Translations under genes and position numbers: made by a program
Shown here: in pieces, positions 359 to 63,272 of the stretch
Layout of the letters: every line of letters begins with the position of its first letter
How positions within the stretch are numbered: the stretch's first letter is position 1
Source: Escherichia coli
Lineage (GTDB): Bacteria; Pseudomonadota; Gammaproteobacteria; Enterobacterales; Enterobacteriaceae
Direction: 5' to 3' (one strand)
NCBI RefSeq assembly: GCF_036507355.1
Contig: NZ_AP027877.1
Length of the DNA: 64,000 nucleotides
Notes under the pieces: model-generated
The model's database searches: none
What the model saw: only the letters and a program-made list of their open reading frames with translations
Told to the model about the DNA's origin: nothing

Positions 359-1990
359 TCAGTGCTTCACAATGTACATATTCCGGGTGTAGGTATTATC
401 CAGCGGATCTTTGCCGGTATAACCACCAACCCACGGTTTCACCAGACGCGCATTCACGTAGTAATAAACAGGAACAATGGCCGAATCCTTATCCAGCTGT
501 TGTTCTGCTTTAGTGTACAGAGCTGTGCGCTGCGCCTCGTCAGTCACTTTCAGCGTTTCCGCCATAATGCTGTCAAAGGCCGGGCTCTTATAATGCGCGG
601 TATTCATCGAGCTGTTCGAAAGCATGGTGTTCAGGAAGGAAGTTGGTTCGTTGTAGTCAGCACACCAGCCTGCACGGGCCACATCAAAAGTACCCTGGTG
701 ACGGGTGTCGAGGAACGTTTTCCACTCCTGGTTAACCAGTTTGACGTTTACACCAATGTTTTTCTTCCACAATGAAGAGGCAGCAATCGCCAGCTTTTTA
801 TGCAGATCGGAGGTGTTATACAACAGGTTGATGGTCAACGGTTTGTCTGCGGTATAACCCGCTTCAGCCAGCAGTTTTTTCGCTTCTTCGTTACGTTTTT
901 CCTGGCTCCAGCCAAACCATTCCGGCTGAGTCAATTTTGCGCCATCAGTATACGGTGGAGTGTAACCATAGGCGGGCATGTCGCCCTGCGCTTTCACTTT
1001 ATTAACAATGATATCGCGGTCCATACCCAGTTTCAGTGCGGTACGCACACGCACATCGTTGAATGGCGGTTTCTGGTTGTTAATTTCGTAATAATAAGTG
1101 CACAGGTATGGATCAACGTGAACTTCGTCCGGGATCTCTTTTTTCAGCTTCTGGAACAATTCGATCGGCATGTTGTTATACGTCATGTCGATTTCACCAC
1201 TACGGTAGCGGTTGACATCGGTAACTTCAGAAGCAATAGGCAAATAGGTTACCTGGTTAATAACGGTTTTCGCGTTGTTCCAGTAGGTTGGGCTGCGTTC
1301 AAGAACGATTCGTTCGTTTACGACCCAATCTTTTAAGGTATAGGCACCGTTGGTGACGATATTACCAGGCTGGGTCCATTTTTCGCCGAATTTCTCGATA
1401 GCGGCTTTTGGCACCGGTGAAGTTGATGGGTGAACAAGTAATTTATAGAAGTACGGAACGGGTTCACTTAAGGTGACTTCTAATGTGTGATCATCAATAG
1501 CTTTCACGCCGAGATCGGTAATCGGTTTTTTCCCTTCAAGAATTTCATCAATACCGGCGATATGCCCATATTGCAGATAACTGGCATACGGAGAAGCAGT
1601 GTTCGGATCAACAGAACGTTGCCAGCTATACACAAAGTCTTGTGCTGTGACTGGCGTGCCATCAGACCATTTCGCATCTTTACGCAAATGGAAGGTCCAG
1701 ACTTTCGCGTCTTTATTATCCCAGGATTCAGCGACGCCAGGTGCTGGATGACCGTCAAGATCGCTGACCAGTAAGCCTTCAAACAGGTCTCGGCTGATAT
1801 TAGACTCCGGAACACCTTCAATTTTGTGCGGATCTAATGACTGAACTTCTGAACCATTGTTACGTACCAGCGTTTGTTTTTCCGCCAGTGTGACGCCTGC
1901 GGGTACATCAGCTGCCAGCGCGACATTCCCTGCCATTAGCGCAGCCAGAACACCAGCTGCTACTAAACTTCTCTTGGTGATGTTGGTCAT
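359..1990 (-). CDS. oppA: Periplasmic oligopeptide-binding protein OppA
   Basis: ORF-track protein contains MTNITKRSLVAAGVLAALMAGNVALA signal peptide; start placed at internal Met (ATG 1988-1990) preceded by GGAG-like RBS, not at the upstream ATG of the 567-aa track ORF. Confidence 0.92.
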   Translation of the reverse strand: MTNITKRSLVAAGVLAALMAGNVALAADVPAGVTLAEKQTLVRNNGSEVQSLDPHKIEGVPESNISRDLFEGLLVSDLDGHPAPGVAESWDNKDAKVWTFHLRKDAKWSDGTPVTAQDFVYSWQRSVDPNTASPYASYLQYGHIAGIDEILEGKKPITDLGVKAIDDHTLEVTLSEPVPYFYKLLVHPSTSPVPKAAIEKFGEKWTQPGNIVTNGAYTLKDWVVNERIVLERSPTYWNNAKTVINQVTYLPIASEVTDVNRYRSGEIDMTYNNMPIELFQKLKKEIPDEVHVDPYLCTYYYEINNQKPPFNDVRVRTALKLGMDRDIIVNKVKAQGDMPAYGYTPPYTDGAKLTQPEWFGWSQEKRNEEAKKLLAEAGYTADKPLTINLLYNTSDLHKKLAIAASSLWKKNIGVNVKLVNQEWKTFLDTRHQGTFDVARAGWCADYNEPTSFLNTMLSNSSMNTAHYKSPAFDSIMAETLKVTDEAQRTALYTKAEQQLDKDSAIVPVYYYVNARLVKPWVGGYTGKDPLDNTYTRNMYIVKH

Positions 1991-2727
1991 TGTTTTTTGG
2001 ACTCCCTCATTATAATTACTGGTATTAACCAGCTTGTGTAATCCCGGATTGGGACCCTGCACAGGCTCGGAGACTTTCTGCTGTCAGGTTACTTTATCGT
2101 TACGGATTGCTATCACCGACTTTATTTATTCTGGTGATTCAGACGATCACCTTATGTCGATTCGTACTGTGTCTCCCCTGTCGAGACACATTATTCTTTC
2201 ACGACGTTCTTTAATTGTTAATTATTCTCATTACCAATAAAGAATCGCCTGGCGGTTGCCCGGAAAGTACCAAATGCGCTTCTTACTCGCCAATACATTT
2301 TGCAAAATTGTTAAGCAATTCTCTTTTATTGACCGTATCAGAATCTATAGCTTGCATCCATGTCTTAACAAACATCTTTCAATTCAATCAAATAGAGATT
2401 GGTTAAGCATGTCTATCTTTTCTGATTACAGTTCCAGTAGTGAAATGCACAATAATTTAACAATTGATTATTATTTAGCACTTTCCTCTACCAAAGGCAG
2501 TGGAATTACTAATATCATTTCAATTATTCTTCAGCAAGCCCAGGATTATGATGTGGCGAAAATAACATGATGGTGAAGAGAAGCAGTTAAGGAAATCCTT
2601 ATAACTAACTGTAATTTGAGAAGAATATTTTTATCTATTCCTTTTGCTTTTGATAACTGCGCAGGAACAAAGTAAAAATAATGACGAAGTAAACGGAGCA
2701 TGGCAGCTCCGTTTCATTTGAAAGGAA

Positions 2728-3375
2728 TTAATTAAGCAGGCCGGGGAAAATCCCCTTAATACCAGTAACGATAAATTCAATCCCCAATGCCATCAGCAAT
2801 AGCCCCATAATACGCGTAATCACGTTGATGCCGGTCTGGCGTAAAACCCGTACCAGCCACGGTGCCATGCGGAACAATCCCCAACAACATAAAGCGAACA
2901 ATGCAATAGCCACAAAGAAACCAAACAGATAGCTAATGCTGTGATAACGCGTACCCCAGACGATGGTAGAACTGATCGCCCCTGGCCCCGCCATCAACGG
3001 CAACGCCAGTGGCACCACACCAATGCTTTCACGTACCGCGGTTTCTGATTTTTCTTGCTTGTTCTGTTTATCCTCTCCAAGCTTGCCGCTGATCATCGAC
3101 ATCGCTATCGTCACCACCAGGATGCCCCCGGCGATACGGAACGAATCAATTGATATACCAAAAAGTTGTAGAATCGTGTCGCCGAGAAAAAGCGAGATCC
3201 ACAAGATAATGGCCACGGACAGGTTGGCTGTAAGGTTAGTTTTGTTTCGCGCTGCCGCTGTCTGATAACTGGTCATGCTGATAAAGACGGGAATAATCCC
3301 TACCGGGTTGACCAGCGCAAATAACCCGATGAAAAATTTGAAGTAAACGGGAAAATCAAAAAGGGTCTGAATCAC
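2728..3375 (-). CDS. ychE: UPF0056/MarC-family inner membrane protein YchE
   Basis: 215-aa multi-TM protein MIQTLFDFPVYFKFFIGLFALVNPVGIIPVF...; position between oppA and adhE. Confidence 0.85.
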   Translation of the reverse strand: MIQTLFDFPVYFKFFIGLFALVNPVGIIPVFISMTSYQTAAARNKTNLTANLSVAIILWISLFLGDTILQLFGISIDSFRIAGGILVVTIAMSMISGKLGEDKQNKQEKSETAVRESIGVVPLALPLMAGPGAISSTIVWGTRYHSISYLFGFFVAIALFALCCWGLFRMAPWLVRVLRQTGINVITRIMGLLLMALGIEFIVTGIKGIFPGLLN

Positions 3376-16209: not shown

Positions 16210-16919
16210 TAGTGCTGTCCTCCGGTGGTGATATTCAGATATTGCGGCGCGACGGCACCGGCAAAGCGACGCTGATGAGCAGTGATTGCTGAATCACCGC
16301 AGCCTTTGTCAGCAAAGAATTTAACCTGCTCTTCTTCCCAGACAGCATCCAGCGCCTGCGGCGTATCATCGCGCGCTTCGTCGGCAATTTTTTCCGCCAC
16401 TTTGTCGCTGTCGATAGCGGTATTGGCCAATTTCAGCAGCAGATCAAACAGCACGGCATAACGGCTTTCACGCTGTTGCAGACGCGCGCTCAGCAATGCC
16501 AGAATCGGCGCGATATCTTTCAAACCTTCCACGGCTTCGCTTTGCGGCAGCTGCGCCAGGTACTCCAGATACAGCGGCAGATGGTCCGGCAATTCGCGGC
16601 TGTTTAACTGCAAGCCGTGCTGCTCGTACTGCGCCAGCAGGTCCACCATCGCCTGGCCGCGGTCGCGGGATTCGCCGTGCACATGTTCAAACAGCAACAG
16701 TGACGTGGCGCGGCCACGGTCGAACAGTTCGCTGTACTGCGCCTGGGCATCGAGCGGATCCATCGTCGTTAAATCGCGCAGGAAAATGCCCAGCGCATGG
16801 GCATCCTCTTTTGGCAGATTTTTCGACGCGGCAATCGCCTCAAACATCTCTTGTTGATGCTGCCATAAGGCAGCATCCGGATATTCAAGGAGACGCGATA
16901 CAATCACGAGTTCGATCAT
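16209..16919 (-). CDS. narJ: Nitrate reductase A assembly chaperone NarJ
   Basis: 236-aa [32 protein letters not shown]...; overlaps narI start and narH stop as in the operon. Confidence 0.95.
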
Positions 16920-18454
16920 GGGTGCGGCTCCGTTTTGCTGGTTACGTCGATGGCATCGATACGGCGGCTGTTGAACAGATTGAATTTGGTATCTGAACCG
17001 TGGCAGCCATCACCAAAGGTAAAGCCGCAGCCATTTTTCTCCGGGAAGGCTTCCCGTGCCAGTTCACGATGACTACTCGGCACCACAAAGCGATCTTCGT
17101 AGTTAGCAATCGCCAGATAACGGTACATCTCCTGTGCCTGGGCTTCGGTCAGACCGACCTCTTCCAGCGCACGGGTATCAACTTTACCGTCAACGGTTTC
17201 AGCACGTTTGTAATGACGCATCGCCAGCATACGTTTCAGCGCGCGCAGTACCGGTTTGGTATCACCGGCGGTCAGCAGATTCGCCAGATACTGTACCGGA
17301 ATACGCAGGCTTTCGACGTCTGGCAGAATGCCGTTGCTACCCAGCTCACCCGCGTCTGCTGCAGACTGAATCGGAGACAGAGGCGGCACGTACCAGACCA
17401 TCGGCAGTGTGCGATATTCTGGATGCAGCGGCAGCGCCAGTTTCCATTCCATTGCCATTTTATAAACCGGCGACTGCTGTGCAGCTTCAATAACGCTCAG
17501 CGGAATACCGTCTTTAATCGCCTGCTCGATGACTTTCGGATCGTTCGGATCGAGGAACACCTCCAGCTGACGCTGGTAGAGATCTTTCTCGTTCTCGGTG
17601 CTGGCTGCACGTTCAATCGCGTCGGCATCGTACAGCAGCACGCCAAGATAACGGATACGACCGACACAGGTTTCTGAGCACACGGTCGGCTGACCCGCTT
17701 CAATACGCGGATAGCAGAAGATGCACTTCTCAGACTTACCGCTCTTCCAGTTGAAGTAGATTTTTTTGTACGGGCATCCGGTGATGCACATACGCCAGCC
17801 ACGGCATTTATCCTGGTCGATCAGGACGATGCCATCTTCTTCACGCTTGTAAATCGCACCGCTCGGGCAGGTCGCCACACATGCCGGGTTCAGGCAGTGT
17901 TCGCACAGGCGCGGCAAATACATCATGAAGGTGTTTTCGAACTGGCTATACATCGCCTTCTGGATGTTGTCGAAGTTCTTGTCTTTCGCCAGTTTGTCAA
18001 ACTCACCGCCCAGGTCATCTTCCCAGTTCGGCCCTTTTTCGATTTTCGCCATCCGTTCCCCGGTAATCAGCGAACGCGGACGGGCAATCGGCTGCGATTT
18101 GCTGCCTTCCGGTGCGGTATGCAGGTTCTGATAGTCAAAATCGAACGGCTCGTAATAATCGTCGATCCCCGGCAGATGCGGGTTAGCGAAGATTTTACCC
18201 AGCAGCATGGCACGGTTACCCATGCGCGGCTGCAGTTTGCCGTTGATTTTACGGATCCAGCCGCCTTTGTATTTTTCCTGGTTTTCCCAGTCAGTCGGGA
18301 AGCCCTGGCCCGGCTTGGTTTCCACGTTGTTGAACCACGCGTATTCCACGCCTTCACGGCTGGTCCAGACGTTTTTACAGGTAACTGAACAGGTGTGGCA
18401 GCCGATGCACTTATCGAGATTCAGCACCATGCCGACTTGTGAACGAATTTTCAT
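16916..18454 (-). CDS. narH: Respiratory nitrate reductase A beta subunit (Fe-S)
   Basis: 512-aa ORF MKIRSQVGMVLNLDKCIGCHTCSVTCKNVW... with multiple CxxCxxCxxxCP ferredoxin motifs. Confidence 0.96.
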   Translation of the reverse strand: MKIRSQVGMVLNLDKCIGCHTCSVTCKNVWTSREGVEYAWFNNVETKPGQGFPTDWENQEKYKGGWIRKINGKLQPRMGNRAMLLGKIFANPHLPGIDDYYEPFDFDYQNLHTAPEGSKSQPIARPRSLITGERMAKIEKGPNWEDDLGGEFDKLAKDKNFDNIQKAMYSQFENTFMMYLPRLCEHCLNPACVATCPSGAIYKREEDGIVLIDQDKCRGWRMCITGCPYKKIYFNWKSGKSEKCIFCYPRIEAGQPTVCSETCVGRIRYLGVLLYDADAIERAASTENEKDLYQRQLEVFLDPNDPKVIEQAIKDGIPLSVIEAAQQSPVYKMAMEWKLALPLHPEYRTLPMVWYVPPLSPIQSAADAGELGSNGILPDVESLRIPVQYLANLLTAGDTKPVLRALKRMLAMRHYKRAETVDGKVDTRALEEVGLTEAQAQEMYRYLAIANYEDRFVVPSSHRELAREAFPEKNGCGFTFGDGCHGSDTKFNLFNSRRIDAIDVTSKTEPHP

Positions 18455-46126: not shown

Positions 46127-47320
46127 ATGCTCACTGATACACAATGCCGCACTGCCAAACCGAAAGAAAAACTCTATCGACTCAATGATTTCAACGGTCT
46201 CTACCTCGAAGTGAAACCCAATGGTAAAAAGGCTTGGCGTTATCGGTTTAAGCTCAACGGTAAATCCAGCATGTTTGCGCTAGGTGAGTACCCGACGGTC
46301 AAGCTTGCCGAGGCTCGAGAAAAATGCGAGCAAGCGCGAAAGCAGGTTGCGGAAGGAGTCAACCCAGCGCAAGCTCGTCAGTTAGATAAGATTCGTAAGG
46401 TTAACGACGCATCCAACACCTTTGAGCTGATCGCCAAAGAGTGGCTGCAGATGAAAGACTGGGCCGAAATTACCAAAACACGCCGACTGGATATGCTTGA
46501 ACGTGTGGTTTTCCCCTCAATCGGTAAGCTTCCAGTCAGAGAGATCACCCCACACCATATCCTTAAAATTCTTCAGGAAACTGCCAAACGAGGAGCACCG
46601 ACAGTTGCCGCAGAAGCCCGTCGCACCATTTCATCAGTTTTCGAGTTGGCTGTGGCAACGCTTAGAGCTGATAGCGATCCTGTCTGGCCTGTACGCAAGG
46701 CACTTCCGGCGAATAAGACACAGCACAAACAGGCATTGAATCCACAGCAAATCGGGAAGCTATTAAGCTGTTTTGATAACAGTCGCGGCTCATATCAGGT
46801 TAACTATTGCATGTGGCTAATGTGGTGGACGCTGGCGCGACCAGCCGAAGTCACCGAGGCAGAGTGGGCAGAGTTCGATCTTGGTAACGCACTGTGGACC
46901 ATTCCGGCAAGGCGTATGAAAGCTCGTAGGGAACATGTTATTCCCCTTCCTTCCCAAGCCGTCAACATGCTCAAAACACTACAAGGATTAACCGGGCATA
47001 GGCAGCATCTTTTTCCGGGCAGGGATAATCCGCTAGGCCCAATGACATCGCACTCTCTGCGTCAACTACTTAAAAGCCTCGGATGGAATGGCACTTATAG
47101 CCCCCATGCTACCAGAACTACAGGAAGTACGCGTTTAAACGAAATGGGCTATCGACCTGATGCTATTGAGGCCCAACTTGCGCACGCTGATACCAACAAT
47201 GTTCGTCGCACATACAACCATGCAACTTATCTTGATGAGCGAAAGGTTATGATGCAAGACTGGGCAGATAAACTTGAAGGATGGGTAGGAAGCACACACA
47301 GCAATATTGATGTTTCGTAA
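46127..47320 (+). CDS. int: P4-type tyrosine integrase (island integrase)
   Basis: 397-aa ORF with the N-terminal arm-binding-like region typical of P4-family integrases and a C-terminal catalytic region ...HSLRQLLKSLGWNGTYSPHATRTTGSTRLNEMGYRPDAIEAQLAHADTNNVRRTYNHATY (R..H..R..Y). Confidence 0.85.
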   Translation: MLTDTQCRTAKPKEKLYRLNDFNGLYLEVKPNGKKAWRYRFKLNGKSSMFALGEYPTVKLAEAREKCEQARKQVAEGVNPAQARQLDKIRKVNDASNTFELIAKEWLQMKDWAEITKTRRLDMLERVVFPSIGKLPVREITPHHILKILQETAKRGAPTVAAEARRTISSVFELAVATLRADSDPVWPVRKALPANKTQHKQALNPQQIGKLLSCFDNSRGSYQVNYCMWLMWWTLARPAEVTEAEWAEFDLGNALWTIPARRMKARREHVIPLPSQAVNMLKTLQGLTGHRQHLFPGRDNPLGPMTSHSLRQLLKSLGWNGTYSPHATRTTGSTRLNEMGYRPDAIEAQLAHADTNNVRRTYNHATYLDERKVMMQDWADKLEGWVGSTHSNIDVS

Positions 47321-47719: not shown

Positions 47720-49888
<2,169 letters not shown>

Positions 49889-49949
49889 CTAAGCATCACA
49901 GTGGCAGGTCGACAGGGACAAACCTGTGAGTCTGCAGGCTCGACGTTGT

Positions 49950-50290
49950 GACAGAAACAATCGCATCACACATCAACACCACAGCTTCCCGCTTCTGGTC
50001 TGTCGTCAATACTTTCGCCCAAGAACCACCTGAAGCGCCTGAAGCGCCTCCTTATCCGGCATGGCTTCAGCAAGCAGCTTCTTTGAGTCTGGCGTTCTCT
50101 TCCTCAAGCGACTCCAGGTGCTTAACCTCAAGCACCGCCATACTTCTTATGCTATGTGTAAAGAGTGGCATCGGAAATAGCGTGCTTGCAGCAGAGCTCA
50201 CGGGCAGAAACTCCAGCTTCTGCTTCACGGAGAACGCTGATTATCTGTTCGTCGGAAAAACGCTTCTTCATGGGAATCATATTCGGCGTC
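49950..50290 (-). pseudogene. IS3-family OrfA remnant (truncated, internal stop)
   Basis: Minus-strand translation from 50279 gives MIPMKKRFSDEQIISVLREAEAGVSARELCCKHAISDATLYT then a stop, with ...LKSLEEENARLKKLLAEAM... continuing out of frame; no cognate OrfB follows. Confidence 0.55.
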
Positions 50291-50450
50291 AGGGTCAATA
50301 TAAAGGCATTACTAGCATCGGGATGTACTAATCAACGGAGAGCAAGATCACATCCCTAACAGTATGACCAGATAAGCTATTCATAGTAAAAAAATATATC
50401 CACTAACCATCTAGAAGATAAGTCATGATTTTCACGGTAATGACTCCAAC

Positions 50451-50954
50451 TTATTGATAGTGTTTTATGTTCAGATAATGCCCGATGACTTTGTCATGCA
50501 GCTCCACCGATTTTGAGAACGACAGCGACTTCCGTCCCAGCCGTGCCAGGTGCTGCCTCAGATTCAGGTTATGCCGCTCAATTCGCTGCGTATATCGCTT
50601 GCTGATTACGTGCAGCTTTCCCTTCAGGCGGGATTCATACAGCGGCCAGCCATCCGTCATCCATATCACCACGTCAAAGGGTGACAGCAGGCTCATAAGA
50701 CGCCCCAGCGTCGCCATAGTGCGTTCACCGAATACGTGCGCAACAACCGTCTTCCGGAGCCTGTCATACGCGTAAAACAGCCAGCGCTGGCGCGATTTAG
50801 CCCCGACGTATCCCCACTGTTCGTCCATTTCCGCGCAGACGATGACGTCACTGCCCGGCTGTATGCGCGAGGTTACCGACTGCGGCCTGAGTTTTTTAAA
50901 TGGCGGAAAATCGTGTTGAGGCCAACGCCAATAATGCGTGCACTGGCGCGACAT
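50451..50954 (-). CDS. insB: IS1 transposase InsB (produced as InsAB fusion by frameshift)
   Basis: 167-aa [53 protein letters not shown]... Confidence 0.9.
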
Positions 50955-51504: not shown

Positions 51505-54500
51505 TTAAATATCTTCTGGTGATTCCCCCAGATACATCTTACGGTAATGATACACTTCAAAGAATTTCCCCTTGTCTTTGTAACTACTGATAAAGTAGCA
51601 ATGTGTTAAATACTTTAGCAGGATCTCATTACCTTCAGTTTTGTGAACTTTTGCTCGTTTGGTTTTATCCGCAATCAAATTATATTCTTCCGACACGAAG
51701 GCCATAAGCGCACGATTGATGTATTCAAAAGGCAGTTCTTCACACTCTAAAAGATGATTCAAAAACACAAGTCGAGTGTCATCTTCCGAAACATTAAGAA
51801 GGAGTGCTATACTGACTTTACTATTTAGGCTTATATGGTCGAAGAAACTATTGGTATAGTGCGGCCAGAGAACATTGATGATTGAAACTTTAGTCGTCAA
51901 CTCTATATCGTCATCATTGAGCACAAGCTCAATAAGTTCATTATCGAAATCTTCGTCATCTTGCAGATAAAACTCAATATTATTTTCAAAAACAGCAAGG
52001 TTGTTTCTAATCATAAGCGACAGACACTCATTGAGGCCCTTGCGACGTTGTCCCTCATAAATGCTGAGTACGTCTTCATAGAGCGCTTCTGACAGCAAAA
52101 CTCTGTTGCTCTCACAAAGTGCTTTAAATTTTGTCAGTGGCAGGTCACTGATTACCTTGTCGATACTTACAGGCAGCACGCTGATCAACTGTGCATATAA
52201 CGCGTCTGGCTTATCCGCTGCTGAAATGATGTGATTCACAACATTATCAATAGACTCCTCAGGAACACTGACCTTATGGCCTGAAAGCACCTCTGGATGG
52301 TGAGCAAAAAACGCCCACAATATCTCATCGTCGACATCGGTATACATGTAGTTAAATATGTTATCCCAGTTGGCAGCGACACGCCCATGTTTAAACAAGA
52401 GGTCATAAACAGTGAATGACGCACCCTCAACTACCGATAGCCTGATATTTTCAACTGTCGACAACTGCTGAACTTCAAAATCCATGTTTTCAATTATAAT
52501 TTCTTTGGAACGCTCAGTAGCGTCTGAATTAATTAGTGAAATAACGGATCCAACGCTTTCCTCAGAATGAATGAAATATTCCACAATAAACATCTCAAGG
52601 TTTGTATTTACAGCCTCAATTAAGCATGGGACTTTTTCACTCATAATTAAGGTATATGGATTGCGCGATAGTTCCTCAACATTCTTTCTGTTATTAGAGT
52701 ACGCATTAAACAGTGCAGTGAGGTTATTAATATTAAATACATACAGAAAATTCTCTGCGATAAACTTCACCAACGTACGTTCACTTTCATCGTTAGCTTC
52801 ATTGACGCTATCGAATACAATATTGAGCTCTTTTAATTTTATGCTGAATGACGCAATCTCATCGGGTCGTATGTATGTAAACAACGTAGTGTCTGTTTTT
52901 AATTCATGCAGATAATCCTGAACAGCACTTTGTCGGGTAATGTTTTCTATCAGACCAAAACGAAGTAATGACACAAATAACTGCTGATAAAAATCATCAT
53001 CAGAGTCAATGTCACGGTAAGTACTCATCGCCGCCATCAATTTACCCAATGTCTTTTCATCGCTTAAAATTAAATTAATTAAGTCATGATAGTCATCATT
53101 ACTAAATTCATAAAAATACGTCCGCATAGTGCGAATGATTAAGCCATGTGAGCAATAATTAAATAAATGAATAAAAACATCACGGGCAAAACCAGCTCGG
53201 CAGTTGATCAAAAAGCTAATTATATGCGGATGAAAAATCCCCTCGTAATATTTAAATGATAGCGACTCCATTTTATCTACAACATTGGAAACGTTATTCA
53301 GATGAATATCTTTTAACTCCTCAAAATTCACCTTAGCAGCGACCTTCTGGATATAAACATTATCTGATTTACTTAATGCACCTGCATGGAAGATAGAGCG
53401 ATATTGCATGTAATCCTGCTCAATATATCCATTTGACAACATGAAAAACAACAATTCCATATTGAAATTAATCGCTGAAGGCTTGGATGCATTTTTATTT
53501 CCCTTATCGTCAGTTGATGCAACATTAAGCAACCACTCACTCAATTTCGCTAAGGTTATTTTTTCACATAATTCATGAAGTGATAGGCCATTTCGTTGAT
53601 TAAGAACACGCTGTGTGTTTAAAATATTTTTAGATAATTGCTCAACGGTTTTTTGGTTCTTATCTAAAATAACTGGTGAGCGTTTGTTATATTCACGTAA
53701 ACTCTCAGCTCGCTTATTATGTGGAATTTGGAAGGTATCTTGATATTCATACCCGTTTCTTGAATATGTGATAGCTATTCCGGATGGAAGCTCTCTGTTC
53801 AGAAAATCACAAAACAATGATTCATCCCCACAAAGTTCAACAAAGCTCCAGCTACTCCCAACTTGCCCATACTTATTATGGCTTATATAAAACACTGTAT
53901 TCGATTCAATTTGTTCAGGAAGATAACGCCTTAGAATTTCAACCCTCAGATTTAAACTGGATGTTTGCAATTCCTTTTGTACTTTCACCAACTTTTCTTT
54001 CTGCTGAGAAATCTTTATTTCCAAATCTTTAAAATACACGTCATGTAGCGTTCTCTTAGAGTAAGCATTAACTATTCTGTATAAAAAACCATCCTGATTA
54101 TCAAGCAGAGTGAAATCTTTGGTACATAAATTTTTATACATTATCAAAGAAAATAACTTCACATCAGAAATCTCACCCGTAATTAATTTTTTAAAAATAT
54201 TAAATTCATTTATAACATTATTCATCACCCGCATATCAGTCAGGTAAAGGGATACTTTCTTGAAAAACTGCTCTTTATCTACCGAATTAAAGTTTATAAC
54301 TTTACTACTTAATATGTCATACGCATTCTCACTATCTACTGCAGGTATAATCGGCACAATAAAATCAAAAAATTTTGTTTGTGATTCAGCATCCTTTAAT
54401 AAATCCTCCCTGACTGCAAAAATAAATTTAATCGGTTTCTTTTCCAATAGTCTGGAATTGTTTATCACTTGATTTATTTCACGGAGCTTAATAAAAATAT

Positions 54501-55407
54501 GACCATTGTTTAAACGGTCTAAATCTTCAAATACGACAACTCTATACTTTGTTTTAAGGAAGAAGTAAACAATCTCATCAATATACAAATTTAGCAGAGA
54601 AGCTGTATTCTGTTTTTCCGCCGCAATTTCTGCCTTTAAGAGATTTACTTTATCAAGAGCAATTTTTCTGTCAAAAAATCCTATCCGATAAAAACGAGAC
54701 AGCAGATACCAACAAATGATAAATGATAGCGAACCGATACATCCCCAACGCCATACCGGATGTATCGCAATGAAATGACTCACCGCTGACGGTAATGAAA
54801 ACGTGTTGATAATTTTTTGAGGAAACAACAATGTAGTGACAACGATTGTCAGTATGAGAACAAAAAACAGCAAACAGGATGTTATTAGTATTTGCCCAAC
54901 ACTTCGGGTGTGAATGCGCTCTACCCGCGAATCTGGCAGCGTACCTTTATCCACTTTGTATAAAATCTGCTGTAATATGCTGTATTCAATGCTTTGTTCT
55001 TTTGATAAAGACTCGGAACTTTTTAGTGTCTCATCCGTTTCAAAGTTTGCCAGTGAGATAATCACGTGCTCATCCGCTGGTTTTAAACTTGTAAACCTGA
55101 GCCAATATTTCAGGCGGTGCCACAACCGCTTTCGCCCTTCAATTTTTTTAAGGTATGAGAGAATAACCGAGCTTTTACCCGCGCCATAGGACCCCGTGAT
55201 GGCGATGTTCTTCACATCATCCCGGCTGAGGGCATAATCCAACGCCTTAAAATAGGGTTGATATCCCTCTTTATCAGGATCGACAATCGGTGTTAGCGTT
55301 TGGAATTCCCTTTCCGTTCCTGAATTGTTTTCTGAAGTAACCTGAAGCCTTGCGACTGTTTTATGCAACCAGTCTGCGATCGTTTTCAACCCGAAAGACA
55401 GCGCCAT
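51505..55407 (-). CDS. Large (1300 aa) KAP/YobI-like P-loop NTPase with transmembrane hairpin inserted between Walker A and Walker B; long C-terminal region of unknown function. Candidate defence/conflict protein
   Basis: Walker A ITGSYGAGKSSV (about aa 70-81), two hydrophobic helices (about aa 171-195 ILITSCLLFFVLILTIVVTTLLF and 215-236 HPVWRWGCIGSLSFIICWYLL), Walker B-like VVVFEDLDR (about aa 290-298); Lys/Asn/Ile/Phe-rich composition; gene is conspicuously AT-rich versus flanks. Confidence 0.75.
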   Translation of the reverse strand: MALSFGLKTIADWLHKTVARLQVTSENNSGTEREFQTLTPIVDPDKEGYQPYFKALDYALSRDDVKNIAITGSYGAGKSSVILSYLKKIEGRKRLWHRLKYWLRFTSLKPADEHVIISLANFETDETLKSSESLSKEQSIEYSILQQILYKVDKGTLPDSRVERIHTRSVGQILITSCLLFFVLILTIVVTTLLFPQKIINTFSLPSAVSHFIAIHPVWRWGCIGSLSFIICWYLLSRFYRIGFFDRKIALDKVNLLKAEIAAEKQNTASLLNLYIDEIVYFFLKTKYRVVVFEDLDRLNNGHIFIKLREINQVINNSRLLEKKPIKFIFAVREDLLKDAESQTKFFDFIVPIIPAVDSENAYDILSSKVINFNSVDKEQFFKKVSLYLTDMRVMNNVINEFNIFKKLITGEISDVKLFSLIMYKNLCTKDFTLLDNQDGFLYRIVNAYSKRTLHDVYFKDLEIKISQQKEKLVKVQKELQTSSLNLRVEILRRYLPEQIESNTVFYISHNKYGQVGSSWSFVELCGDESLFCDFLNRELPSGIAITYSRNGYEYQDTFQIPHNKRAESLREYNKRSPVILDKNQKTVEQLSKNILNTQRVLNQRNGLSLHELCEKITLAKLSEWLLNVASTDDKGNKNASKPSAINFNMELLFFMLSNGYIEQDYMQYRSIFHAGALSKSDNVYIQKVAAKVNFEELKDIHLNNVSNVVDKMESLSFKYYEGIFHPHIISFLINCRAGFARDVFIHLFNYCSHGLIIRTMRTYFYEFSNDDYHDLINLILSDEKTLGKLMAAMSTYRDIDSDDDFYQQLFVSLLRFGLIENITRQSAVQDYLHELKTDTTLFTYIRPDEIASFSIKLKELNIVFDSVNEANDESERTLVKFIAENFLYVFNINNLTALFNAYSNNRKNVEELSRNPYTLIMSEKVPCLIEAVNTNLEMFIVEYFIHSEESVGSVISLINSDATERSKEIIIENMDFEVQQLSTVENIRLSVVEGASFTVYDLLFKHGRVAANWDNIFNYMYTDVDDEILWAFFAHHPEVLSGHKVSVPEESIDNVVNHIISAADKPDALYAQLISVLPVSIDKVISDLPLTKFKALCESNRVLLSEALYEDVLSIYEGQRRKGLNECLSLMIRNNLAVFENNIEFYLQDDEDFDNELIELVLNDDDIELTTKVSIINVLWPHYTNSFFDHISLNSKVSIALLLNVSEDDTRLVFLNHLLECEELPFEYINRALMAFVSEEYNLIADKTKRAKVHKTEGNEILLKYLTHCYFISSYKDKGKFFEVYHYRKMYLGESPEDI

Positions 55408-55765: not shown

Positions 55766-56638
55766 CTACTTACGGGTTCTCACCCCAGAGGTAAATGTCA
55801 GTCCAGTAAACCCCATCTCATCCTGCTTACATAACGCCCGTGCCAACAGAACAGGCGGCAGCCTGTGTTTGGGGGTACGGCGTTTTCCTGCCTCATCAGG
55901 ATAAGGTCTTACTTCCAGCCACATCCCCTTGAAGCAGTATGTTACCTGCTCGTCAAAATCCTTCAGCTTCTGGCTTTTCATCGGCCGACTGATTATCCCC
56001 GCTCTGGCCCGCATATTTTTATCCCTCTTCATCGCCTTTCTTAGCGTTTTGAGCGCCCCCGGCTCTCTCGGCATCAGTAGATGCAGGTGAGGCATCCAGC
56101 GCTGGATATCGGTGTGAAAATCCAACTCGTAGTCACCCACTATTTTGCCCGTAAATCCGGCTCTTTTTATCATCTTGTAGACCCGCTCCCGGAACTTCTT
56201 ATGATCCCAGCGGCTGATCTCGTCTTCTTTCAGCATGGCATCGTAATAAACCAGCGTAACCACTCTGTACGCGCCCTTAGAGGCCCTCAGTGGGAGCAAT
56301 TCAGTCAGCTTACGTAACCTGTGCAGGCGGAAACACTGTGGGCAGGCCGCGCTACCACATTGATGTTCTGGCATACAGCCCTCCAGTTTTCTCTTTAACC
56401 GAAACATCCGCCCTCGCCACTTTTTGTGTGCTTTTCTGACTTCTTTGCTCTCATCCTGATTATCATTCCTGTTCTGCCGCACAGCCTTTCGTATTGCTTT
56501 TATGCGGTACAGGCGTTCCTTCTCCATTTGCTCCCGGGTTTCAAAACCCGGAATGGTAAGAGCTAACTTTTCCAGTTGGCGCTCTTCTTCTGTCAGTGAT
56601 GCATACACTGCTCGCGCAATACGGTTTGTACCAAACAT
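55766..56638 (-). CDS. Putative HUH-type replication initiation protein (inovirus Gp2-like), island-encoded
   Basis: Contains HLHLL (His-hydrophobic-His) motif in WMPHLHLLMPREP and a Cys cluster CGSAACPQC; start placed at Met 56638 directly after the alpA stop (track ORF overlaps alpA by 50 bp). Confidence 0.45.
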   Translation of the reverse strand: MFGTNRIARAVYASLTEEERQLEKLALTIPGFETREQMEKERLYRIKAIRKAVRQNRNDNQDESKEVRKAHKKWRGRMFRLKRKLEGCMPEHQCGSAACPQCFRLHRLRKLTELLPLRASKGAYRVVTLVYYDAMLKEDEISRWDHKKFRERVYKMIKRAGFTGKIVGDYELDFHTDIQRWMPHLHLLMPREPGALKTLRKAMKRDKNMRARAGIISRPMKSQKLKDFDEQVTYCFKGMWLEVRPYPDEAGKRRTPKHRLPPVLLARALCKQDEMGFTGLTFTSGVRTRK

Positions 56639-56639
56639 A

Positions 56640-56834
56640 TCAGCAACCTCCTCTGGTCCCACGGGAAGCAATCCACTCATTGACTTCACTTTCCAGCCAG
56701 GCCACCGCTCGTCCTCCTGTCAGGGATTTTTGGCGTGGGAAAGTCCCTTTTTCAATCATCCGGTACAGTGTGGCGCGGCTCACCGCACAGCGTTCCAGCA
56801 CAGCCTGAATTTTGACCAGTTTCATATCATTCAT
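56640..56834 (-). CDS. alpA: AlpA-family phage/island transcriptional regulator (MerR-like HTH)
   Basis: 64-aa ORF MNDMKLVKIQAVLERCAVSRATLYRMIEKGTFPRQKSLTGGRAVAWLESEVNEWIASR, the AlpA signature. Confidence 0.8.
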   Translation of the reverse strand: MNDMKLVKIQAVLERCAVSRATLYRMIEKGTFPRQKSLTGGRAVAWLESEVNEWIASRGTRGGC

Positions 56835-57760: not shown

Positions 57761-58708
57761 TTACCAGCAACATAGCGCCCTGGAGGCTCTGTCTACAGCC
57801 TGCCTGCCCCTACAGTCATAGCGTGTGGTCGTGGATATATCCGCATGTCCTGCCAACTGGCGCACCACATTAATGTCCACTCCCTGCTCCAGCAGGCGGG
57901 TGATGAATGTCCGTCGCAGGTCGTGGGGGGTGAAGTAATCCACTTCTGCAGCTTCGCGTAACTGCGCCAACAGCCCTGTAAGACCCGTGGTGGTAAGCCG
58001 TTGTCGTCCTGGCTGCCCCGCACGACTGATGCGACTGAACAGCGGCCCGGCATGATACCCCCGGAGCTTCAGCCATCGCCGCAGTTGCATGCAGACTTTT
58101 CCGGAAAGGTGGATTTCCCGGATTTTGCGCCCCTTTCCCTGCCTGACAATCACGATCCCCGTGGCTACATCTATATCTCCCACGTCCAGGGCTACCAGTT
58201 CGGCGGCACGCAGACCTGCGCCACACAGAAGCAGCAAAATAGCCCGATTACGCTGGCAACGTACAGCGTCAGCCTTTCCGGCCGCCGCCAGCATGGCCCG
58301 AATTTCGGTCCTGTCCAACGCCCTGCCCAAGCGGGTGGCACTGCCAGTGACACGCCTGACTGAACGTATGCGCGTCAGTCTGTCAGCATCCAGAATCCCC
58401 ATACTGAAAGCCGCTCCGGCAACCGATTTCAGCGCCGACAGCGCCATGTTCACCGTGGCAACAGCATAGCCCTCATCCAGCAGCACCGAGCGTACCCGCA
58501 TCACGCTCGTGTAGTCCAACGTATGCCAGGGGTAGGTGTCGGGCTTCGCCCCCGGACGGAGGATACCGGCACATCGTCGGAGTAAGCTTTGCATCCCCCT
58601 GCGCCCGGCTGGCGTCAGGCTTGCCAGCCACAGCAATGCTGGGTTGATGGAGAGGGCATTTTGCGGGTGGACAGATGCCGCGCGTTTACCATTGCGGCTC
58701 GTGGTCAT
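57761..58708 (-). CDS. Tyrosine-type site-specific recombinase (XerC/XerD-like), GC-rich
   Basis: 315-aa ORF with catalytic region ...FTPHDLRRTFITRLLEQGVDINVVRQLAGHADISTTTRYD (R..H..R..Y) and LCGAGLRAAELVALDVGDID box; visibly GC-richer than neighbouring island genes. Confidence 0.7.
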   Translation of the reverse strand: MTTSRNGKRAASVHPQNALSINPALLWLASLTPAGRRGMQSLLRRCAGILRPGAKPDTYPWHTLDYTSVMRVRSVLLDEGYAVATVNMALSALKSVAGAAFSMGILDADRLTRIRSVRRVTGSATRLGRALDRTEIRAMLAAAGKADAVRCQRNRAILLLLCGAGLRAAELVALDVGDIDVATGIVIVRQGKGRKIREIHLSGKVCMQLRRWLKLRGYHAGPLFSRISRAGQPGRQRLTTTGLTGLLAQLREAAEVDYFTPHDLRRTFITRLLEQGVDINVVRQLAGHADISTTTRYDCRGRQAVDRASRALCCW

Positions 58709-58784: not shown

Positions 58785-59405
58785 TCAGCGTTTTTTCACA
58801 CCATAATGCTGAAGGTAGCGATTCAGGCTCCGACCAGCGCCAGTCTCAAAATTCCATGTCCGCCAGATAAGCTGCCCCACTGTGTCGCGTATCACCAACC
58901 GGAAGTGGGTATGCAGGTCATCCTCAATGGCGACATTTTTATACGTCGCAACCACAGCCTCTGCTTCCAAACGAGTAAACGAATCTGGGGGCAGTTGTGG
59001 CGTCTGTATTGTGGGCTCTGGTGCTGCGCGGTCAGGACGTGAATGCCGTCCCTGTGTGATGTGACTGACGGCTTGGTAACTGCTCTGCCTCAGAAGTCCG
59101 GTGGTCTTCCTTGCCCGGAGAATATCAATGGAGGTAATGTGCGGAGACTGGGGGATAAAGCTGACATTACCCTGGTCTGTACGTACCAGGTCGTACTTTT
59201 CAACAATAGAATTCAGGGCCTCCGTCAGTGATATCTCTGCATCAATGTATGCCTGAATGGCACCTTTCCCGCTAAACGGCGTGTCGCTGAGAGTGAGTCC
59301 GTAGTGCTTCTCCAGCAAGTAAGCCAGCAGAGTGTGCCAGACATCAGCAGGGGACAGGCAACACGATAGTGTCCGATTTGGTGAGACCGGTTGTTTTTTC
59401 ATCAC
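58785..59405 (-). CDS. CbtA/YeeV-family type IV toxin homolog with about 80-aa C-terminal extension
   Basis: First ~125 aa align by eye to CbtA (..[35 protein letters not shown]..); ORF continues to 206 aa. Confidence 0.65.
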
Positions 59406-59931: not shown

Positions 59932-60369
59932 TCAGCTTTCCCACAGCACGCGCGTGGTGTAGACCCCGCTGGCGTAGTAGCTCAGGAAGTTACGCTCCCA
60001 CAGGCTGTAAAGCGCCCTTACTTCCGTTAGAGGCAAATCCCCCGTACAGTAGTGCCAGACATAGCCCTGCGACCAACTGATATCGATGATTTTCTCCAGC
60101 TCCGGGTAGACCGTGCCGACATAGCCAAAATCGGTGGCGTAGTCCAGGCACCACTCATCGCCCTGATGAATTAGCCGGATCTCCACCGGGTGATAACCCC
60201 CCCGCTCCACACTGTAGTCCGGGTCCCGGAAGTTGAATGTCACGGCGGTGATCCGATGTTTATGGGCGGGTATTTCGCCCGCCTCTGCCATCAGCAGTTC
60301 GTACAGTTGCAGACTGACAGGCAGCATAAAGCCTGCCGGCTGAATAACGGCATTGATGTTCAAGAGCAA
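59932..60369 (-). CDS. Hypothetical protein between radC-like gene and antitoxin
   Basis: 145-aa ORF, no motif recognised; occupies the position of the small DUF987 gene in CP4-like modules but is about twice as long. Confidence 0.4.
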   Translation of the reverse strand: MLLNINAVIQPAGFMLPVSLQLYELLMAEAGEIPAHKHRITAVTFNFRDPDYSVERGGYHPVEIRLIHQGDEWCLDYATDFGYVGTVYPELEKIIDISWSQGYVWHYCTGDLPLTEVRALYSLWERNFLSYYASGVYTTRVLWES

Positions 60370-60454: not shown

Positions 60455-60943
60455 TCACAGTAGCCCGTGTTCAGCGAAAGACCAGGCTTTGTCGCCTCCC
60501 ACAATGAGATGGTCGGTCACGCGGATATCCAGCAACGCCAGTGCGTCTGTAATTTTTTGGGTAATGAGTTTATCGGCCTGGCTCGGTTCAGGCTCACCAC
60601 TGGGATGGTTATGCACCAGTATCACAGCAGCAGCGTTGTGCGTCAGTGCCAAGCTGACTATTTCGCGGGGATAAACCATCGTCTGGCTCAGCGTACCGAT
60701 AAACAATGTCTGGTAGCCGAGAATATGATGTTGCTGTGAAAGCATTATCACACCAAAAGATTCACGGTTTTCAAGCGCCAGCTTCATCACCAGCCACTGA
60801 CGTACATCTTCAGATGAGGTGATTTTTCGGCGATTGCGAAACTGGCGGGTCAGCAATGAATGGGCAAACCGGATAATCTGTTCGCGGGTAACCGGCTCCA
60901 GCGTCTGATAATGACCGCTACGATCACTTGCGATAAACGTCAT
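60455..60943 (-). CDS. RadC-like JAB/MPN-domain protein (YeeS/YfjY-like)
   Basis: JAMM motif HNHPSGEPEPSQAD and C-terminal DHLIVGGDKAWSFAEHGLL; start set to Met 60943 to avoid overlap with upstream ORF (alternative 60997). Confidence 0.7.
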   Translation of the reverse strand: MTFIASDRSGHYQTLEPVTREQIIRFAHSLLTRQFRNRRKITSSEDVRQWLVMKLALENRESFGVIMLSQQHHILGYQTLFIGTLSQTMVYPREIVSLALTHNAAAVILVHNHPSGEPEPSQADKLITQKITDALALLDIRVTDHLIVGGDKAWSFAEHGLL

Positions 60944-60965: not shown

Positions 60966-61589
60966 TCAGAATTCACGTTCAACAAAGTAAATGGCATCCG
61001 GCAGCAACGTATGGCGCTTCAGCTCAGGTTGTACTGAAAACGTGTCCTTTCGCTGGCTGCGTATCCCCAGGCTATCAAACAAAAACAACCGGGTAGCATC
61101 GGTACGAACCACCACTGACCAGTGCCATGTGGTCCCCATAATCACCACGCGCTGCGCCTGATTCTCCGGTGAAGCCAGCCAGTCGCTGATATCATGAAAT
61201 ATTCGGTGAGTTCTCAAGGTTCGATAACGGAAGGGAGTATGAAAATAGAGGGGATAATGTTGGGCGTAATGCCCTCTCAGCAGAACATCTGCTATCAGGT
61301 GGTCCATCTGCTCTTCATCCAGGCCAAGCGTCAGGAGATCAAATAAGTCCCATCGTCGCTTATAGCTGCTTAGCAGGCGGTACATTAATTTTTCCCGCCT
61401 TACCCTGCCGTCATAGAGGTAACTCAGGGTATTAATCAGGCTGTAGATGCCACACAAATAGTCATGCTGTCCCTGGCGGGACGCATGAACGTCTCGAGGA
61501 AGTGTCATTGTAAATTTCCGGGATAAGTGATGGCTGTGAACCAGCCGGAATGGTGGTGATACAGTGGCTGAGCGCATGATGGCAGCCAC
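60966..61589 (-). CDS. Hypothetical protein with conserved-looking Cys and His (possible cysteine-hydrolase fold)
   Basis: 207-aa ORF; LCGIYSL near N-terminus and HWSVVV near C-terminus; sits where CP4-like elements usually carry an anti-restriction gene but does not resemble ArdB/KlcA by eye. Confidence 0.4.
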   Translation of the reverse strand: MAAIMRSATVSPPFRLVHSHHLSRKFTMTLPRDVHASRQGQHDYLCGIYSLINTLSYLYDGRVRREKLMYRLLSSYKRRWDLFDLLTLGLDEEQMDHLIADVLLRGHYAQHYPLYFHTPFRYRTLRTHRIFHDISDWLASPENQAQRVVIMGTTWHWSVVVRTDATRLFLFDSLGIRSQRKDTFSVQPELKRHTLLPDAIYFVEREF

Positions 61590-61665
61590 TGTATAAATTA
61601 TAACAAAATCAATACATTAATGCAAGTGATTCTTGTTATCACTTATCCAGCGACTCCTTCACTTG

Positions 61666-62046
61666 TTACTGGTTAACGTCTCCTTCAGACAGGTCCCTTG
61701 CAACCTGAGCCAGAGCCTGCTGCAAAAGTTTATCCCTAGAGGCCGGTTTCATGGTACGGAACAACTGTATCCACAGGTTAAGCTGCTCGTCTGCTGAAGT
61801 ATCTGCCGCATCCCGCTCACTTTTCAACGCCATCCCTGCCGCGCTGATATGGTACAGAAACCCCTTCCCACTGGTGCGTTTGCGGCGGATTTCCGGATGT
61901 AGGGCTGTGAGCTTTTCCAGACGTAGCCGCGCCCATTTCGCTGTGCCCGGCATTCCTTCCATTCCGGCAAACTGCTCTGCTGTAAGCCACTCCCCACTGT
62001 CCGTCATTCCGGCATCACAGGGCTCAGTCATCTGTTCACTGCTCAT
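61666..62046 (-). CDS. Hypothetical acidic protein, possible DNA-binding regulator
   Basis: 126-aa ORF MSSEQMTEPCDAGMTDSGEWLTAEQFAGMEGMPGTAKWARLRLEKL...; the left end of IS5 abuts its 5' region. Confidence 0.4.
   Translation of the reverse strand: MSSEQMTEPCDAGMTDSGEWLTAEQFAGMEGMPGTAKWARLRLEKLTALHPEIRRKRTSGKGFLYHISAAGMALKSERDAADTSADEQLNLWIQLFRTMKPASRDKLLQQALAQVARDLSEGDVNQ

Positions 62047-62077: not shown

Positions 62078-63272
<1,195 letters not shown>

Follow-up and report, generated by a model that had tools for sequence, protein, structure and literature searches.

Which protein occupies the position directly upstream of radC in an accessory island of Escherichia coli, and what might it do there? 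The question is raised by an open reading frame (ORF) on the minus strand of a 64,000-nucleotide stretch of the E. coli chromosome (contig NZ_AP027877.1, assembly GCF_036507355.1; hereafter the window), within an island that adjoins ychF. An initial annotation had described this ORF, at 60966–61589, as an unrecognised protein of 207 amino acids (aa) with a candidate Cys/His catalytic pair, situated in the slot usually held by an anti-restriction gene. We find that the ORF is a real gene in a large family for which no family model exists, and that its product is a protein of 180 aa. The reading of this gene that we consider moderately probable is that it encodes a papain-like cysteine peptidase of narrow specificity, transcribed from its own promoter, which acts together with the neighbouring RadC-like protein on a protein target, likely a regulator of the island.

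The gene and its conserved catalytic set

The maximal ORF runs on the minus strand from 61589 to 60966, and its 207-aa translation contains both of the segments singled out in the initial annotation, LCGIYSL and HWSVVV. The ORF was thus correctly placed, but its length was not: the coding sequence (CDS) spans 60966–61508 on the minus strand (start ATG 61506–61508, stop 60966–60968) and encodes 180 aa, as also called in RefSeq by the Prokaryotic Genome Annotation Pipeline (PGAP) from ATG 61508 (WP_000174655.1, 'hypothetical protein'). All full-length homologs begin with the N-terminus MT.PRDV, and the 81 nucleotides (nt) between GTG 61589 and ATG 61508 show frame-breaking indels among homologous loci. 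The 207-aa start is over-called, since a conserved extended −10 promoter would probably begin its transcript at GTG 61589, which lies some 8 nt past the invariant TGnTATAAT element. A contrary view would be that the protein is nevertheless made from GTG 61589, where the maximal ORF does begin and in favour of which some gene callers give extended products (such as the family member P0006, with 202 aa), or else that we are dealing with a chance ORF or a pseudogene without function; given the ATG starts of the homologs, an extension that is not conserved in frame and a GTG at the predicted transcript start, we accord it next to no credence, and a chance ORF is ruled out because the protein is conserved across phyla with its catalytic set intact. 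Residues are numbered here in the 180-aa form, in which Cys19 and His129 correspond to Cys46 and His156 of the 207-aa form.

No Pfam, NCBIfam, PADLOC or PHROG model matches the peptidase, even at E≤1. A word-indexed search retrieved 16 close homologs only, whereas an exhaustive profile search returned 525 representatives of 50%-identity clusters at E≤1e-3; the members are nearly all single-domain proteins of 170–200 aa, the database names of the relatives are all 'hypothetical protein' and none of them carries a precomputed Pfam domain. As far as the model libraries and the literature surveyed show, the family is undescribed: it is a new family within a known superfamily.

Conservation was counted in an alignment of 126 homologs, mostly representatives of 50%-identity clusters. 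Cys19 (codon TGT, 61452–61454; this and the following codons on the minus strand), the predicted nucleophile within the motif QGxxDxLCGxYSxxN, is present in all 126 sequences; Gln12 (CAG, 61473–61475), the predicted oxyanion-hole residue, in 125; His129 (CAC, 61122–61124), the predicted general base, in 124, followed by the near-invariant Trp130 (123); and Asp145 (GAT, 61074–61076), the predicted third member of the triad in an FDS motif, in 124. Comparable counts were obtained for Asn26 and Gly62 (126 each), Gly13 and Asp16 (125 each), Gly20 (124), Tyr22 (122) and Ser146 (120). The near-invariant residues hold up when Gammaproteobacteria, other Proteobacteria and Chloroflexi are each taken by themselves, and the catalytic residues are intact in all of these. 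The Cys/His pair proposed in the initial annotation, which had named lack of conservation as the outcome that would count against it, is therefore conserved and accompanied by an equally conserved Gln and Asp.

A papain-like fold and its putative chemistry

The structure predicted with AlphaFold2 (AF2) from the 126-sequence alignment has a predicted local distance difference test (pLDDT) value of 93.2 and a predicted template modelling (pTM) score of 0.90; it superseded a run with nine close homologs only, which at pLDDT 43 was unusable. In the model, Cys19 is the first residue of helix 19–31, His129 lies at the start of strand 130–136 and Asp145 follows strand 140–143. The structural features of the papain-like superfamily are present: the Cys at the N-terminus of a helix, the strands bearing the His and Asp C-terminal to it, a Gln preceding the Cys, and structural similarity to solved papain-like members. 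These structural relatives (similarity scores in parentheses) comprise the phytochelatin-synthase-like Alr0975 (11.7), Lpg2622 (11.4), an entry named 'P210 CD lyase' (22oc; 11.3), the isopeptidase PeiR (11.3), the C39 domains of PCAT1/ComA (10.5–11.3), UfSP2 (11.2), Mug105/ZUFSP (11.1/10.7), ATG4A (10.9) and the Staphopains (10.2–10.4), with the ligase CtaG also in the match list.

At the level of family profiles, a Pfam scan of the 126 members gave sub-significant matches only, to C39 in 13 members and to Josephin in four. Among the 25 families listed for these members there was no match, even weak, to transglutaminase, NAT, YopJ or NlpC/P60, and the peptidase itself does not match the transglutaminase core profile (PF01841). 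A canonical papain arrangement with an intact Gln/Cys/His/Asp set, in a distinct family inside the papain-like superfamily, is in our view well supported. Of the 'papain-like or transglutaminase-like' dyad suggested at the outset, the papain-like half is borne out by residue conservation and the pLDDT-93 model, while the transglutaminase-like half found no Pfam match; the profile and fold searches that had been proposed along with it yielded a papain-like fold and no matching family model.

The protein would be expected to act as a hydrolase, either as a thiol peptidase or as an isopeptidase. We infer by analogy that it is a sequence-specific endo- or isopeptidase with Gly-Gly-type specificity and not a bulk protease: a narrow, Gly-Gly-like specificity is suggested because its nearest structural relatives (C39 leader peptidases, UfSP, ZUFSP, ATG4 and Josephin) cut after Gly-Gly or other small residues, and because it shares motifs with the Ulp1/SENP peptidases. 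The triad could instead serve a different chemistry, such as acyl or acetyl transfer (YopJ, ChlaDUB1), deamidation, transglutamination, transpeptidation (phytochelatin synthase) or a lyase reaction. Papain-like folds accommodate each of these chemistries (PMC10318531); PeiR, CtaG and the 22oc entry, of uncertain nature (23% identity over 140 residues), are among the structural matches, and a Chloroflexi clade of the family lies by genes for a metallo-beta-lactamase (MBL)-fold hydrolase and an F420H2-dependent reductase-like protein, which could mean small-molecule metabolism. The conserved Gln at the oxyanion position, however, agrees with peptide or isopeptide hydrolysis, as do the relatives of narrow specificity (C39, UfSP, ATG4, ZUFSP and the SENP8-like motifs), and the Pfam families of transferases and related enzymes named above gave no match; we thus hold a non-hydrolytic or non-peptidic reaction to be quite unlikely.

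The likeness to the Ulp1/SENP peptidases (family C48) emerged from comparing the native family profile with PDB sequences, in which the NEDD8 protease SENP8 was matched as two fragments in the 'wrong' order (E 0.02–0.04): the C-terminal HW...DS corresponded to SENP8 His102/Asp119 and the N-terminal QG..D.CG.Y..N to SENP8 Gln/Cys163, and further clan CE entries (SENP5, RickCE and an ElaD/SseL domain) were found among the weak matches. C48 and adenain have been placed in the papain-like superfamily, where circular permutations are common and closely related pairs of canonical and permuted members are documented (PMC10318531). Prompted by the order of the SENP8 fragments, we permuted the family in silico, swapping the halves of 36 members such that residues 85–180 preceded residues 1–84. 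The permuted profile gave one alignment with SENP8 over 127 residues, with H, D, Q and C all aligned (E 1.3e-4); hhalign returned 95.8% for the permuted profile against the SENP8 fragment and 93.7% (P 1.8e-7, 92 columns) against 21 vertebrate SENP8 sequences, as opposed to 65–72% for the unpermuted profile, where the region of the Cys motif alone was aligned. At the sequence level we regard the relationship to SENP8 as suggestive.

Promoter, island context and proposed role

Upstream of the peptidase gene lies an extended −10 promoter-like element, TGTTATAAT, at 61597–61605 on the minus strand; the DNA is conserved and a promoter function is predicted from it. Its core, TTGATTTTG(C/T)TATAAT, is common to five aligned loci, among them the locus of a homolog with 49% protein identity, with TGnTATAAT invariant across the five, and a sixth locus (L017) has the variant TTGAGTTTGATATAAT / TGATATAAT. 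A consensus promoter scan had missed the element because its −35 region is weak. An inverted repeat or 5' leader hairpin, ACAGTGGCTG...CAGCCACTGT (61559–61594, minus strand), begins at about +1 and in the window forms a 12-bp stem (ACAGTGG...CCACTGT): the 95-nt leader RNA folds with −26.9 kcal/mol (z −3.8), a stability that none of 200 shuffles reached. The repeat keeps its AGTGG/CCACT core, and in L003 and L017 a different but still complementary inner stem is found. The conserved leader has no match in Rfam; it may act either as an operator or as a stabilising hairpin at the 5' end of the transcript. This intergenic conservation at the DNA level is seen where the peptidase gene is the first after a helix-turn-helix (HTH) gene, and the conserved promoter and leader indicate an expression signal that belongs to the peptidase gene itself and is tightly conserved. 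On the coding strand, no terminator-like site was found from the peptidase gene through to the recombinase gene that closes the block.

The genes of this block that are given here with coordinates are on the minus strand. The block is headed by the gene for a 126-aa HTH protein (61666–62046; phrog_310, 2e-7; phrog_7148, 'transcriptional repressor', 2.3e-5), whose cluster is present in 15 related loci. The gene for a RadC-like JAB/MPN metallopeptidase (60455–60943; Pfam RadC, E 4.9e-43) lies 22 nt downstream of the peptidase gene, and beyond it stand a DUF2787 gene (59932–60363; Pfam DUF2787, E 4e-34), which is a recurrent partner in the module, genes for the CbeA antitoxin and for an in-frame CbtA-DUF905 ORF, and finally the gene for a 315-aa tyrosine recombinase (57761–58708; Pfam Phage_integrase, E 2.4e-32), whose cluster occurs in 23 related loci. 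The CbtA-DUF905 ORF (58785–59405, minus strand) encodes 206 aa, with the CbtA toxin domain (2–113) in frame with DUF905 (137–205); for the same DNA in strain ET729, PGAP calls a truncated CbtA pseudogene and a separate DUF905 gene.

In order to survey the context of the family, one genome per species was scanned with a pattern from a 21-sequence alignment, which required the Cys motif and so says nothing on loss of the Cys; this gave 80 loci, 72 of them with a callable target ORF for which ORFs and neighbour clusters were determined. About 27 gammaproteobacterial loci (Enterobacterales, Aeromonas, Pasteurellaceae and Orbales) share a fixed backbone of HTH, (DUF2787), peptidase, (RadC), integrase and AlpA, in which DUF2787 is found in 16 loci (at −1 in 12, at +2 in four) and RadC in 14 (at +1 in 13). 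From the ~315-aa tyrosine recombinase onward, the backbone continues with a small divergent gene, AlpA, a protein of 285–350 aa without Pfam match and variable cargo, for instance GmrSD, retron Ec67 together with an ABC-three-component system, or the YobI-like nucleoside triphosphatase (NTPase) of the window. RadC is directly downstream also in L002, L009, L099 and others, on several unrelated contigs; three random representatives were on contigs too short for context, and one of these still showed RadC downstream. In addition, one protein of 338 aa (P0094; L096 2012–3028) is a natural fusion of peptidase and RadC, in the usual context of DUF2787...PcfJ-like...integrase.

Of 5,426 complete E. 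coli genomes, 40 carry the window's version, in every case on the chromosome, and 596 have a 41%-identical paralog, in a block of DUF2787, peptidase, RadC and integrase. At one such locus (L100 16442–16984; E. coli SA186) the RefSeq CDS is 16520–16981 (WP_000954131.1), whereas the true start is GTG 16442: the RefSeq start is 26 codons late, past the catalytic Cys, and the annotated protein therefore lacks the Gln/Cys motif. A backbone of DUF2787 and two tyrosine recombinases has been described as the core of gammaproteobacterial pipolins (PMC11551731). Neither the scanned ORFs of the window island nor the annotated genes of the inspected E. coli loci included a polymerase gene, be it annotated or recognisable by Pfam, and the idea that the peptidase is one of the two 'orphan' core proteins of pipolins was accordingly left at a similar backbone only.

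How, then, might the peptidase work? It would be a cytoplasmic enzyme of 180 aa with Cys19 as nucleophile, His129 and Asp145 completing the triad and Gln12 forming the oxyanion hole, whilst a narrow substrate channel is probably formed by Trp130, Asp16, Tyr22 and Asn26. Its gene, with a conserved promoter of its own, would be the first of a block that leads to RadC, DUF2787, the CbeA/CbtA pair and the recombinase, with the HTH gene upstream. The peptidase would then act together with RadC on a protein target inside the island-carrying cell; the immR-immA-int layout of ICEBs1 suggests, by analogy, an island regulator as the most likely target, with a host immunity factor as the second candidate. 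A precedent for the RadC side of such a pair is the K-12 homolog LfgB, for which in-vitro degradation of the HTH antitoxin MqsA has been reported (PMC10846083). Ranked by role, we place a regulatory protease of the island first, a function in anti-defence or establishment second, a different chemistry third and a toxic defence effector last.

The second of these roles takes up the suggestion of the initial annotation that the gene stands in for an anti-restriction gene. The premise holds in E. coli K-12, where in CP4-57 the putative antirestriction gene lfgA/yfjX lies directly upstream of the RadC-like lfgB/yfjY, and the RadC of the window is 52% identical to LfgB/YfjY; it was also right that the protein does not resemble ArdB, as it has no similarity to LfgA (BLASTP E 4.5) and no Pfam antirestriction match. 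In place of ArdB/KlcA, the peptidase might inactivate a host immune protein by proteolysis when the island enters a cell or is activated. Besides the shared position, this would suit the neighbours of relatives in other Proteobacteria, which adjoin transfer- or establishment-type genes: a protein with an ArdC N-terminal domain (L010), DUF3768 (L014, L050 and L059) and RadC, as well as integrases. ArdC is an anti-restriction protein with a protease domain. (In L050, a Hyphomicrobiales metagenome-assembled genome (MAG), two tandem family paralogs at 1804–3360 come straight after an integrase and a DUF3768 gene.) The distribution of the family speaks against such a function: no homolog was found in 50,697 phage records, and only 3–4 of 72,556 plasmid records carry a member, all typed non-mobilizable, whereas the typical carriers of known anti-restriction genes are plasmids, conjugative transposons and phages (PMC9366191). 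Moreover, the protein has no PADLOC match, in Gammaproteobacteria its gene belongs to the island backbone and not to the variable cargo, and there are chromosomal clades in Chloroflexi, Syntrophaceae and Nitrosomonas. Gene position is the sole argument for the anti-restriction idea; another reading is better supported, and we consider this one unlikely.

These chromosomal clades also bear on the generality of any role in the island. The Anaerolineales (Chloroflexi) clade (MAGs L051–L094; 67–98% identical internally) shows conserved chromosomal synteny with genes for the MBL-fold hydrolase, the F420H2-dependent quinone-reductase-like protein, UPF0114, an alpha-amylase and a major facilitator superfamily (MFS) transporter, and the Syntrophaceae and Nitrosomonas copies (L042–L048) lie beside glyA, metG and similar genes; the chemistry of the family is thus not intrinsically tied to mobile elements. 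They further count against the peptidase serving as the toxic effector in a toxin-antitoxin-like or defence system, held in check by the upstream HTH protein or a neighbour until phage infection, in the manner of abortive infection. An HTH gene is indeed directly upstream and the islands do carry defence cargo (GmrSD, retron Ec67, the ABC-three-component system and the YobI-like NTPase), but the gene is backbone and not cargo and lacks a PADLOC match, its partners vary, it stands alone among housekeeping-type genes in several phyla, and no immunity-type small ORF is consistently adjacent: we take such an effector to be very improbable.

Several observations nonetheless weigh against a narrow-specificity peptidase that acts with RadC on an island regulator. 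Foldseek searches of PDB and BFVD gave weak peptidase and Josephin matches only (best E 2.5e-4). The SENP8 comparison was devised after the weak match had been seen, centres on almost a single target and has no clan CA control family; Pfam C48 (PF02902) did not match the native sequence and matched just one of the 36 permuted sequences. The peptidase::RadC fusion P0094 stems from one metagenomic contig, so that a sequencing artefact is possible. The Chloroflexi clade is surrounded by housekeeping-type genes and lacks an HTH, RadC or integrase gene in its vicinity, and an island-regulator role is therefore not the ancestral or general function of the family. Finally, peptidases that are 50–55% identical adjoin different HTH families, the types being only partly linked, which argues against a tightly co-evolving pair of protease and repressor; strict co-variation of peptidase and HTH types was rejected, as the coupling is only loose.

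The remainder of the window island is a mosaic. An IS5-like element of the ISKpn26 family (62147–63126) lies just upstream of the HTH gene, and remnants of IS21/IS100 and IS1 (48061–50954) are located between a P4-type integrase gene (46127–47320, by ychF) and the cargo gene; in ET729, two P4-type integrases flank the island. The cargo position, which in related islands is taken by GmrSD, retron or other defence genes, holds a gene for a 1,300-aa YobI-like/KAP P-loop NTPase (51505–55407, minus strand; E 1.3e-96), a candidate defence gene. At 55766–56689 on the minus strand a protein is encoded that belongs to a cluster (C20; also in L016, L017, L019, L021, L026 and L027) of 285–307-aa proteins with a conserved CxxC and without Pfam match; its place in these islands is invariably after AlpA, an unrelated protein of 350 aa (cluster C3) being its alternate, and it is possibly the replication initiator of the island.

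Comparison with known systems

The peptidase fits clan CA, but it belongs to none of the C39, transglutaminase-like or ArdB families, and the order of its catalytic residues sets it apart from C48. With ArdB/KlcA (LfgA/YfjX, YafX) it has in common the position directly upstream of a RadC-like gene, in a CP4-type block ending in the CbeA/CbtA pair. ArdB/KlcA proteins are regarded as non-enzymatic, whereas the peptidase has an enzyme fold with conserved residues and shares no sequence similarity with them.

In case of C39, the double-glycine leader peptidases of the PCAT/ComA type in clan CA, the likeness lies in the protein itself: the order of Gln, Cys, His and Asp is the same, there is an N-terminal Q-x6-CG motif, the His is on a strand followed by an Asp-containing strand, and C39 is the sole Pfam family matched by more than a few members. 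These matches are weak, however (13 of 126; best E 2.5e-4; P0143 with 15.9 bits against a cut-off of 22), and the query has no match to PF03412 at E≤1. In contrast to the C39 domains, which are N-terminal domains of ATP-binding cassette (ABC) transporters, the peptidase is a stand-alone protein of 180 aa with extra helices between the Cys helix and the sheet, and neither an ABC transporter gene nor a gene for a double-glycine leader peptide is present in the window block or the related loci. The proteases of ubiquitin-like proteins (Ubl) in clan CA (UfSP1/2, ZUFSP/Mug105, ATG4 and Josephin) differ in that identities amount to 5–15% with no significant profile matches, and in that the peptidase family occurs in bacteria, on islands, and is not known to have a Ubl partner.

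For gene order, the closest parallel considered is the immR-immA-int arrangement of ICEBs1, which encodes an HTH regulator, the zinc metalloprotease ImmA and an integrase. In both systems the genes for an HTH protein, a protease and an integrase follow one another on the same strand, at the margin of an integrative element, with RadC as a second co-encoded protease in the present case. Only the layout is alike: ImmA, of the ImmA/IrrE type, is a zinc metalloprotease (HEXXH), here we have a cysteine peptidase of unrelated fold; the peptidase and HTH types are partly shuffled among loci, and cleavage of the neighbouring HTH protein would be expected by analogy only.

The enzyme class as such is ordinary; it is the size of the family, its place beside RadC, the mis-annotation in RefSeq and the possible kinship with Ulp1 that make it a worthwhile target. 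A widespread protein, present in E. coli (40 genomes, plus 596 with the paralog, of 5,426), other Proteobacteria and Chloroflexi, has had neither a family model nor a name, and the substitutions C19A and H129A would offer a mutable handle on the unexplained RadC/DUF2787 backbone of widespread defence-carrying islands, and likewise on the long-unclear role of RadC-like JAB proteins.

In the comparison with Ulp1/SENP (C48), the motifs around all four catalytic residues are alike, HW...(F/Y)DS and QQ/QG..D.CG.Y..N, and the permuted family gives a single alignment of 92–127 residues; the order, by contrast, is Q-C-H-D in the family (Gln12, Cys19, His129, Asp145) as against H-D-Q-C in C48, and no gene for a ubiquitin-like substrate was identified near the peptidase gene. 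On this basis one might imagine that the peptidase is the canonical-order counterpart of the permuted Ulp1/SENP enzymes and forms with RadC an isopeptidase pair that removes ubiquitin-like or Gly-Gly-linked modifications in bacteria. We regard this as a long shot; if it were true, imaginable uses would be the disarming of conjugation-based immunity, such as the Cap2-primed cyclic-oligonucleotide-based antiphage signalling system (CBASS) or Bil-type systems, or the release of a regulator of island excision. Should the link to SENP8 prove real, the two would represent a natural pair of canonical and permuted enzymes at the root of the clan CE deconjugases, and would point to isopeptide substrates of the Gly-Gly type in bacteria.

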